DNA of 64,000 nucleotides, from the NCBI GenBank assembly GCA_005222975.1, contig NJBI01000005.1:63447-127446 (forward strand), given 5' to 3'. The notes under the pieces were generated by a model. It had not been told where the DNA came from, searched no databases, and worked only from the letters and a program-made list of their open reading frames with translations. This DNA is from Promethearchaeota archaeon Loki_b31 (lineage in GTDB: Archaea; Asgardarchaeota; Lokiarchaeia; Sigyniarchaeales; SOKP01). Both the position numbers and the translations under genes were made by a program. Positions 37,416 through 39,149 of the stretch are shown in pieces (position 1 is the stretch's first letter; each line of letters opens with the position of its first letter).

Positions 37416-37542
37416 TAATTACCAAAAAAGTTTTATATCAGAATTAATTTTTTCTTTCTTTAAGCATTTATTAGAACTAAATATTTAAGTGATAAAGGCT
37501 TTTTGATGTGATAAGGAATAAAGAATTATAAATTTAGCCAGC

Positions 37543-37653
37543 GCCAGCGTATAAAACTTATCATTCAAGATGAGTTTGCGCAACCGAGTAGTAAGGAGGC
37601 GGCCTGCAGAGCCGTTGCTTTCAGCATCATGGGTGCAAATCCCATCGCTGGCT
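37543..37653 (+). tRNA. tRNA-Cys (GCA) with a 31-nt intron at position 10/11 and a 13-nt variable arm
   Basis: After removing 37553-37583: acceptor GCCAGCG/CGCTGGC, T8 A9, D stem TCCG/AGGA, anticodon arm GCGGC-CTGCAGA-GCCGT (GCA 37606-37608), T arm ATGGG-TGCAAAT-CCCAT, discriminator U73; CCA not encoded; directly upstream of cysS. Confidence 0.9.
37553..37583 (+). other. Archaeal tRNA intron with relaxed bulge-helix-bulge (HBh') motif
   Basis: Central helix GCGT(37547-50)/GCGC(37578-81), bulges AT^A and AA^C, internal hairpin AAACTTATC/GATGAGTTT. Confidence 0.82.
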
Positions 37654-37706
37654 CTTATATTCCTCATATCACTAATAATGCGCTCATTTAAGGTGTATAA
37701 AATATC

Positions 37707-39149
37707 GTGAAAGTTTATAATAGCTTAACATTTAAAAAGGAAGAATTTAAGCCAATCGAACCCGGAAAAGTCAAAATGTACGTTTGCGGAGTTACCGTAT
37801 ATGGAAGTCCACATCTAGGCCACGCAAAGTCCGCAGTCGCTTTTGATTTAATTCACAGATATTTAAAATTTAAGGGCTATAAAGTTAATATAGTTAAAAA
37901 TTATACTGATATTGACGATAAAATAATTAAGAGTTCTAAAGAAAGAAACATTGATTTCAGGACTTTAAGCAATCAATATATCGCTGAATATGAGGAAATC
38001 ATGGAAATGCTCAATGTCGAGCATAATACACGAAATCCACGCGCAACCGAAGTAATAGATTTTATAATTAATTTTATTAAAGAATTGATTTCTAAGGGAC
38101 ACGCTTACGAGAAAAATGGATCCGTGTACTTTTCAGTTAAATCATTTCCGGGATATAGTTCCATTCTTCAAAAAAGTAAAGATGAAGGAAAGGAAAGCGA
38201 AGAAGAAGATTACACTGTGGATCAAGATACTGCATTTGGAGAAGATAAGTTAGATAGTCGAGATTTTGCGTTGTGGAAAAAAATGAAAGAAGGAGAGCCT
38301 TTTTGGGAAAGCCCTTGGGGTGAAGGGCGTCCTGGATGGCACATTGAATGTTCTGCTATGATCTTGAACTTTTTAGGAGAAACAATTGACATACACGGGG
38401 GCGGTCAAGACTTGAAATTTCCACACCACAGGAACGAAATCGCGCAATCAGAGTCTTATACTGGTAAAAAAATTGCGAATTATTTCCTTCATAACGGTTA
38501 TGTTAATGTAAAAGATGAAAAGATGTCTAAAAGTCTAGGAAATTTTTTTATAGTAGCAGATATTGCCAAGCAGTACGACCCAATGATTATTCGTTGGTAT
38601 CTGATATCGAGTCATTATCGAAGTTCAAATAATTATACTATTGAAAGCATGGAGCAAGCTAAAAATATTTACAACAGATTAATAAACACGATTAAAAAAG
38701 TGAACGATACTGAATTTGCTGAAGCGAAATCAAAGCAACTTAACGACTTAATTGCAAAAATCGAAAATGCAGAAAATAAAATTATTGACGCTATGGAAGA
38801 TGATTTTGACACACCTGTAGCTTTGGCAGAGTTGTTGACGCTGTTTAGAGAGATTAACAAAGCTATACTACAAGATGGCTTGAAAATAAACCAAGAATTT
38901 AAGAATCGATTTTTCGAATTTATAGAATTCAATGAAAAGATTTTCGGAATTTTTCCATCTTTAAACGCTAAAATGACACCTTTCTCGTTTGAAAGCATGG
39001 ATGAGAAAGATAAACTCATTAAAAGCCTCGTTAATTTAATAATTGAAATGCGCACTAAATTAAGAGATAAAAAAATCTACGATTTAAGCGATGTAATACG
39101 CGAACGGTTAAGAGAATTAGGTATCGATATCGAAGATAAAAAGACATAA
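37707..39149 (+). CDS. cysS: Cysteine--tRNA ligase
   Basis: YVCGVTVY, HLGH, DFALWK, GRPGWHIECSAM, DIHGGG, KMSKS. Confidence 0.96.
   Translation: MKVYNSLTFKKEEFKPIEPGKVKMYVCGVTVYGSPHLGHAKSAVAFDLIHRYLKFKGYKVNIVKNYTDIDDKIIKSSKERNIDFRTLSNQYIAEYEEIMEMLNVEHNTRNPRATEVIDFIINFIKELISKGHAYEKNGSVYFSVKSFPGYSSILQKSKDEGKESEEEDYTVDQDTAFGEDKLDSRDFALWKKMKEGEPFWESPWGEGRPGWHIECSAMILNFLGETIDIHGGGQDLKFPHHRNEIAQSESYTGKKIANYFLHNGYVNVKDEKMSKSLGNFFIVADIAKQYDPMIIRWYLISSHYRSSNNYTIESMEQAKNIYNRLINTIKKVNDTEFAEAKSKQLNDLIAKIENAENKIIDAMEDDFDTPVALAELLTLFREINKAILQDGLKINQEFKNRFFEFIEFNEKIFGIFPSLNAKMTPFSFESMDEKDKLIKSLVNLIIEMRTKLRDKKIYDLSDVIRERLRELGIDIEDKKT

Follow-up and report, generated by a model that had tools for sequence, protein, structure and literature searches.

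An interrupted tRNA-Cys gene upstream of cysS

The stretch of DNA analysed here, referred to as the window, is 64,000 nt in length and corresponds to positions 63,447-127,446 (forward strand) of contig NJBI01000005.1 in the Promethearchaeota archaeon Loki_b31 assembly GCA_005222975.1. This assembly consists of 99 contigs with a total size of 3.5 Mb and a G+C content of 31.5%, and is 92% complete. The plus strand of the window carries a tRNA-Cys(GCA) gene at positions 37543-37653, which is interrupted by a single intron of 31 nt (37553-37583) at position 10/11 of the tRNA. The gene is contiguous and collinear over its whole length and is neither split nor permuted. Details of the features of the locus are presented in Table 1.

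The gene is easily overlooked. Run on the unmodified window, ARAGORN did not call any tRNA, whether its intron option was on or off, and the only Rfam tRNA match in the window is a weak one, covering positions 37574-37653 with 30.3 bits against a gathering score of 29. Enumeration of single-intron excisions led to an ARAGORN call of tRNA-Cys(GCA) once about 31 nt were excised, and excision of 37553-37583 generates a sequence which is exactly that of the intronless orthologues. The mature 5' sequence, GCCAGCG UA UCCG AG, is identical in 20-odd intronless orthologues from the same genus. Both features that define a tRNA-Cys, the GCA anticodon and the U73 discriminator, are present. A second tRNA-Cys gene could not be found in the 92%-complete assembly.

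Table 1. Features of the tRNA-Cys locus (window coordinates) and the two further interrupted tRNA genes compared with it
Feature	Position	Strand	Evidence or remark
Conserved upstream block, candidate promoter of tRNA-Cys	37461-37518	+	Near-identical across three genera in loci with the intron
Leader copy of the 5' acceptor strand, GCCAGCG	37537-37543	+	Last G is tRNA G1; complements 37646-37652
Exon 1, tRNA-Cys nt 1-10, GCCAGCGUAU	37543-37552	+	ARAGORN after excision; intronless orthologues read GCCAGCGTATCCGAG
Central helix H, 5' strand G5 C6 G7 U8	37547-37550	+	Pairs with 37578-37581; sequence, MFE, base-pair probabilities
Bulge B1, A9 U10 / A, 5' splice site after 37552	37551-37553	+	Two exon nt and one intron nt between H and h'
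Intron, 31 nt, position 10/11	37553-37583	+	Hairpin h' and H partner GCGC (37578-37581)
Bulge B2, A A / C11, 3' splice site after 37583	37582-37584	+	Sequence; multiloop in MFE
Exon 2, tRNA-Cys	37584-37653	+	Rfam 30.3 bits, ARAGORN, orthologue matches at 77-98% identity
Anticodon GCA, in 7-nt loop	37606-37608	+	Sequence, ARAGORN
3' acceptor strand CGCTGGC	37646-37652	+	Part of exon 2
Discriminator U73	37653	+	Sequence, ARAGORN
Cysteinyl-tRNA synthetase gene (cysS), GTG start	37707-39149	+	ORF list; 53 nt 3' of tRNA-Cys
tRNA-Ser(GCU)	G000:C94:27595-27720	minus	Intron 6/7; loci L048, L049, L052-L055, L063
tRNA-Ile(GAU)	G000:C92:589-730	minus	Intron 7/8; loci L080, L083-85, L088, L090, L095, L103, L104

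The tRNA-Cys gene is followed by cysS, which was identified by eye, without a family search, from its N-terminus (KVYNSLTFKKEEFKP...MYVCGVTVYGSPHLGH) with a HIGH-type motif. Adjacency of the two genes is kept in several genera. Congeners share part of the spacer between them (37654-37706; ATCACTAATAATGCGCTC..TTTAAGGTGTATAAAAT), which probably contains the cysS promoter for a leaderless GTG start at 37707.

Some features of exon 2 are unusual for a tRNA. The variable region (37616-37628) is 13 nt long and contains a small stem-loop, GCU-UUC-AGC. In relatives both sides of this stem change (GCC/GGC, GUC/GAC, GCC/GGU) and the loops are of the GAAA or GCAA type, while a simple loop of 5 nt (UAUUC) takes its place in others; the region could be either a real long variable arm or a mini-insert. 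The T-loop (37634-37640) reads UGCAAAU, with G in place of the near-universal U55, and is kept in all the tRNA-Cys orthologues seen. The D-loop lacks an obvious GG. An extra intron in the T-loop is present in the tRNA-Cys of L032, L035, L037, L044 and L045 (5/5), and that of L037 has an additional canonical 37/38 intron, giving up to three introns in a tRNA of 75 nt.

A copy of the 5' acceptor strand in the leader

The sequence AGCCAGCG at 37536-37543 is directly followed by CCAGCG (37544-37549), which results in GCCAGC being read twice in tandem, plus a final G. The leader together with G1 is therefore a tandem duplicate of the tRNA 5' end, as had been proposed in an earlier note on this DNA made from its letters alone. 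The same note described the duplicate as a perfect 8-bp complement of the 3' end of the tRNA, and a repeat search indeed recovered 37536-37543 and 37646-37653 as the arms of an inverted repeat of 8 nt with 100% complementarity. The eighth pair, A37536 with the discriminator U73 (37653), is not conserved, A being present at -7 in 5 out of 10 related loci. Because of this, the meaningful unit is, as judged from the aligned sequences, the 7-nt GCCAGCG at 37537-37543.

The leaders are 89% A+T (A 0.52, T 0.37, G 0.06, C 0.06), and with this composition GCCAGC is expected at a fixed place by chance with a probability of ~2.7e-7. Among the 27 tRNAs of this genome which were located by their T-arms, only tRNA-Cys has two perfect upstream complements of its own 3' acceptor strand. 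The genome-wide T-arm scan recovered only 27-28 tRNAs and is thus an incomplete census, which does not exclude counter-examples among the unrecovered tRNAs. No such copy accompanies the inspected Loki_b31 tRNAs in which the first intron is located in the D-loop or further 3' (His, Trp and nine others).

Splice motif and splicing endonuclease

The exon-intron junctions lie in a compact motif built around a central helix H of 4 bp, formed by 37547-37550 (GCGU) and 37578-37581 (GCGC) with three G-C pairs and one U-G pair. In relatives the intron partner varies between GCGC and ACGC, giving U8-G or U8-A. This agrees with the claim that the splice helix needs bases 5-8 of the tRNA, since H consists of exactly G5 C6 G7 U8. 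The position of the junction in bulge B1 gives the mature sequence of the orthologues. Beyond B1 the intron folds into a hairpin h' of 9 bp (37554-37562 with 37569-37577) with its loop at 37563-37568. The closing pair of h' covaries, being C-G in this window (L039), A-U in L033 and U-A in L032.

No outer helix h of at least 2 bp can form after bulge B2, A46/C85 and C44/A87 being unpairable. The motif is therefore of the relaxed HBh' type and not a strict hBHBh'. Judged against the strict BHB motif, the locus has a central 4-bp H between the splice sites, a 3-nt bulge between H and h' at the 5' splice site, and an excision that restores a normal tRNA; the second 3-nt bulge, which should be flanked by H and an outer h, is the one element not met. 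Because H uses bases 5-7 of the acceptor stem, the splice-competent fold and the cloverleaf are mutually exclusive. tRNA-Cys is the only cysteine tRNA gene detected here, and with an intron this close to its 5' end, splicing has to make use of the first strand of the tRNA itself.

Two EndA paralogues of ~200 aa each are encoded in the Loki_b31 genome, with genes at G000:C13:36116-36340 and C79:5005-5253. A two-subunit EndA of broad specificity is reported as the common state in Asgard genomes (preprint 10.64898/2026.10.13.758758), and the pair fits this type. Only the presence of the paralogues has been established; cleavage and ligation in the cell, and the dependence of EndA on the leader copy, are inferred.

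Co-occurrence of the copy and the intron in tRNA-Cys

The 135 genomes of the family were searched by pattern for tRNA-Cys genes with an insert at the 10/11 place. The intron was identified in 10 genomes with a readable leader, belonging to three genera, and the leader copy is present in all ten of them. In eight of these loci the copy is GCCAGC abutting G1. The remaining two (L035 and L036) carry the full GCCAGCG, followed by a spacer of 5 nt to G1, and their intron differs in sequence and is in register 9/10. An eleventh intron-bearing locus (L042) was left out as its leader is cut off by a contig end. The copy is absent from all of the ~33 tRNA-Cys orthologues without this intron, whether intronless or with a D-loop intron. 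Intron-bearing orthologues lacking the duplicate would, according to the earlier note, have refuted the proposal; the comparison turned up none.

The copy is 100% conserved in six lineages, and the mean pairwise identity of the leader from -36 to -7 is 63%. As no tRNA-Cys locus shows any variation in the acceptor stem, copy and 3' strand cannot display two-sided covariation in this tRNA.

One pair of loci shows how the copy and the intron travel. L036 (G087) and L043 (G092) have flanks which are 93-95% identical on both sides, and the tRNA-Cys genes between them differ in the intron, the leader copy, the anticodon stem and the variable arm. We considered this pair as a natural instance in which intron and copy had been lost together and rejected it, the alignment showing that the whole tRNA gene was swapped as a cassette; the pair therefore counts as linkage and not as an independent event. 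Each of the intron-bearing versions (of tRNA-Cys and of the tRNA-Ser and tRNA-Ile described below) is common to several genera together with its own upstream block. Since copy and intron are inherited together with this shared block, the counts are not independent; they are inflated by cassette linkage and represent few independent events, probably about one origin per tRNA family.

Similar arrangements in tRNA-Ser(GCU) and tRNA-Ile(GAU)

Two other tRNAs of this genome with early introns have the same arrangement. The mature 5' end of tRNA-Ser(GCU) is fixed by intronless orthologues, which read seven acceptor bases and then UCGCUUAGCC. In seven genomes from two genera, this tRNA has an exon 1 of GCUCAG, an intron of 30-35 nt at 6/7 and then G7. 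A full copy, GCUC(A/G)GG, complementary to the 3' strand is located 10-12 nt upstream of G1 in 7/7 loci. No copy is present in ~23 tRNA-Ser orthologues without the intron, six of which have the same acceptor sequence. The central helix uses G1-C4 and is weak (2-4 bp). Positions -1/-2 of the tRNA-Ser leader (GA) can pair with U8 C9 as an outer helix of the splice motif.

For tRNA-Ile(GAU), 20 intronless orthologues read GGGAGAG UGGCUU and none of them carries a copy. Nine loci combine an invariant GGGAGAG with an intron of 30 nt at 7/8, and in each of them a 13-nt imitation of nt 1-13 in the leader abuts G1 (9/9). The seven acceptor-strand positions of the imitation are read as GGGGAAG, GGGAAAG or GGGAGAG, and all of these variants pair 7/7 with CUUUCCC, the variation being an A/G exchange opposite U except in one locus. 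At position 8, which is U8 in tRNAs, the imitation mostly has C, and it is therefore not the mature 5' end. Its GGCUU, which mimics nt 9-13, is also fairly conserved. Covariation of leader and acceptor stem, which had been put forward as a check of the proposal, thus received a limited answer: the invariant stem of tRNA-Cys cannot be scored, and tRNA-Ile offers pairing-compatible purine changes only.

Predicted folding of the precursors

Partition-function folding was carried out on precursors with 30 nt of leader, with RNAs starting at G1 or having the copy replaced by AUUAAU as controls. In the presence of the copy, the probability of the helix between the copy and the 3' acceptor strand is 0.68-0.99 in the tRNA-Cys loci, and that of H is 0.73-1.0 in the 8 loci with an abutting copy; for the precursor of this window the two values are 0.97 and 0.98. 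In both controls the RNA adopts the normal acceptor stem with a probability of ~0.95-1.0, and H falls to 0.01-0.33. The conformational switch suggested in the earlier note, in which the leader occupies the 3' strand and leaves bases 5-8 for the splice helix, is thereby reproduced, in computation only. In L035 and L036 (G086 and G087), the model pairs exon nt 5-10 with an intron-internal AUACGC, which outcompetes the terminal partner of the splice helix.

The two other tRNA families were folded as well. In tRNA-Ser the helix between copy and 3' strand reaches 0.97-1.0, and in tRNA-Ile the presence of the copy raises the probability of H from 0.00-0.16 to 0.26-0.93. Tertiary structure and proteins are not taken into account by nearest-neighbour folding.

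Once the intron is taken out in silico, the native register and the copy register of the acceptor stem differ by ~1 kcal/mol in 4/5 loci; in L036 the copy register is favoured by 2.5 kcal/mol. Because the registers are about equal in energy, re-registering of the stem after splicing appears feasible and, within the limits of the model, plausible; its completion would need tertiary folding or RNase P. The further suggestion that the stem re-registers for RNase P, so that splicing is enforced before 5' processing, is accordingly judged feasible only in its first part, and the order of the two steps is inferred.

Inferred transcription of the leader

The upstream block is nearly identical in L031-L034 and L038-L040, and the leader 3' of the block diverges. 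Within the block are two TATA-like elements, TAAATATTTAAG at 37478-37489 and CTTTTTGATGTG at 37499-37510, the second of which lies 27 nt from the copy here and 38 nt in the other genera; overall, promoter-like conserved blocks are situated 27-58 nt upstream of the copy. The usual spacing from an archaeal promoter to the start of transcription is ~25 nt. Since either of the two elements plus ~25 nt falls upstream of 37537, transcription probably starts there and the copy would be transcribed. A start downstream of 37537, which the earlier note named as a refuting result, is thus not indicated by these elements. This is inferred from promoter rules and conservation, and the start is unmapped. 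A further TATA-like sequence, TTATAAAT at 37526-37533, was considered as the promoter and rejected, as the start would then fall inside the intron.

The case of tRNA-Ser is less favourable. In its loci from genus g28, one of the two TATA candidates is located just 12 nt 5' of the copy, and if this element is the promoter, the copy would not be transcribed, which counts against a helper function.

An A-run/T-run motif (AAAAAATTTTTTAAA-like) recurs 50-95 nt upstream of many tRNA 5' ends in Loki_b31 and its relatives. If this motif is a promoter, tRNA leaders in this clade are unusually long.

The MFE fold of a longer precursor contains an imperfect inverted repeat (37505-37524 with 37654-37673), which lengthens the helix between the copy and the 3' strand. 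We considered it as a leader-trailer processing stem and rejected it as a part of the device. Apart from this genome, only its closest relative, G150, has the repeat, and other intron-bearing loci have unrelated trailers.

Proposed role of the copy and alternative explanations

We consider it likely that the leader copy serves as a stand-in acceptor strand which enables splicing, and this is the best-supported explanation of the locus. It rests on computation and comparison only, without data on expression, transcription starts, structure probing or cleavage. In the proposed mechanism, the copy (37537-37543) would pair with the 3' acceptor strand (37646-37652) in the primary transcript and so leave the real bases 5-8 available for pairing with the intron's 3' end. 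The freed bases would build the 4-bp H and the first 3-nt bulge of the HBh' motif, to be cut by the two-subunit endonuclease. The same pairing would tie the 5' exon of 10 nt to the body of the tRNA during the cut and ligation. Once the exons were ligated, the real strand, now free of the intron, would displace the copy, and RNase P would then remove the leader at G1.

The main rival is that the copy is a neutral scar, left by a tandem duplication or an unequal crossover at the 5' end of the gene and linked to the intron within an exchanged cassette. There is a small but real chance that this is the case: the intron-bearing versions share their own upstream block across genera, the genes of L036 and L043 are a whole-gene replacement between flanks of 93-95% identity, and the tRNA-Ile copy mimics nt 1-13, beyond what pairing needs, and so looks like a product of duplication. 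However, a G+C-rich 6-7-mer without function should decay in a leader of 89% A+T, yet the copy is invariant in the six tRNA-Cys lineages next to leader sequence of 63% identity. The same arrangement is present in three unrelated tRNAs, each copy matching its own strand, and complementarity is kept at spacings of 0, 5 and 10-12 nt. In addition, nearly all the changes in the tRNA-Ile copy are A/G exchanges opposite U that preserve the pairing.

It is also possible, with a slim probability in our estimate, that the copy does pair with the 3' strand but has as its main role the tethering of the 5' exon, or the masking of the 3' end and G1 from RNase P, CCA addition or decay until the RNA is spliced. 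The 5' exons are only 6-10 nt long and, in the splice-competent fold, pair only with the intron, so that cleavage would set them free unless something else retained them; the predicted helix between copy and 3' strand is near 1.0 in all three tRNA families. These roles are compatible with a stand-in strand that enables splicing, and no data separate the two. Folding nevertheless points to a direct effect of the copy on the formation of the central helix, and a tether role is at present inferred.

That the mature tRNA begins with the upstream copy, the downstream one being part of a longer intron, can practically be ruled out, and the upstream copy was rejected as the real exon 1, although both copies can form a 7-bp acceptor stem and the MFE folds use the upstream one: only the downstream copy precedes U8 A9 U10, the order seen in all intronless orthologues, a junction of the upstream copy with exon 2 omits nt 8-10, the tRNA-Ile upstream copy is variable and mostly has C at the invariant U8 while the downstream GGGAGAG is invariant, and the intron hairpin adjoins the downstream copy in proper bulge-helix-bulge geometry.

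Significance of the leader copy

The persistence of archaeal tRNA introns is thought to require that the endonuclease motif can be folded from exon and intron alone. An intron near the 5' end is at odds with the acceptor stem, which is the most stable of the tRNA helices. Taking the copy as a stand-in strand for splicing, we lean, with considerable reserve, to the view that such leader strands are a general and so far undescribed class of cis-acting helpers in intron-rich archaea, which admit introns within the first ~11 nt, hold the tiny 5' exon and force splicing to precede RNase P. If this is true, a discarded leader strand would be a third component of the splicing substrate and would explain introns at positions 6-11. 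It would also provide a simple sequence signature for hidden early introns, such as that of the present tRNA-Cys, which ARAGORN missed and Rfam matched near its threshold, and it would predict a fixed order of the processing steps. Asgard archaea are the closest prokaryotic relatives of eukaryotes, and the arrangement bears on how heavily interrupted tRNA genes, which are present in the Loki_b31 genome, are handled there.

Comparison with known systems

tRNA introns with a non-canonical BHB or relaxed HBh' motif are known from Thermoproteales and from intron-rich Asgard lineages (PMC4090602, PMC4033280, 10.64898/2026.10.13.758758). The intron described here resembles them in its non-canonical position (10/11), its 4-bp H, its 3-nt bulges cut after the second nucleotide and its h'. 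The described HBh' introns involve exon and intron only, whereas tRNA-Cys has a third element, the leader copy, which lies outside both the mature tRNA and the intron and is apparently needed. The intron itself is therefore an ordinary member of the non-canonical class with a relaxed motif, and the helper strand is the new part. No description of a leader copy of the acceptor strand was found in the searched open-access literature, which included tRNA-intron reviews, work on RNase P fidelity and the 2026 Asgard preprint; in the tRNA-intron part of it, the word 'leader' is used only for split or permuted tRNAs or is absent.

Complementary leader and trailer helices are a feature of split tRNAs (Nanoarchaeum equitans, Caldivirga) and permuted tRNAs (Cyanidioschyzon) (PMC4090602, PMC3218864). 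As in those tRNAs, sequence outside the mature tRNA would pair to set up the endonuclease substrate and would later be discarded. The helpers of split and permuted tRNAs, however, pair with each other beside the cuts and are removed by EndA, whereas the tRNA-Cys copy would pair with the mature 3' acceptor strand. It is ~100 nt away from this partner, far from the cuts, is not bounded by a BHB cut and would need to be removed later by RNase P. Neither of the two hallmarks of split and permuted tRNAs, namely separate or permuted gene pieces and mutually paired helpers removed by EndA, is met by tRNA-Cys.

Pairing of a 5' leader with the 3' end of a pre-tRNA shifts or blocks cleavage by RNase P. 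The arrangement at tRNA-Cys is similar to such mispairing (for site choice by RNase P, see PMC3378863) in that leader bases would compete for the 3' acceptor strand, thereby determining the phosphodiester bond offered to the enzyme. Mispairing of this kind consists of one or a few extra pairs on the stem and is usually a problem of fidelity, whereas the leader of tRNA-Cys contains a full-length, conserved duplicate of the strand which is tied to an early intron.
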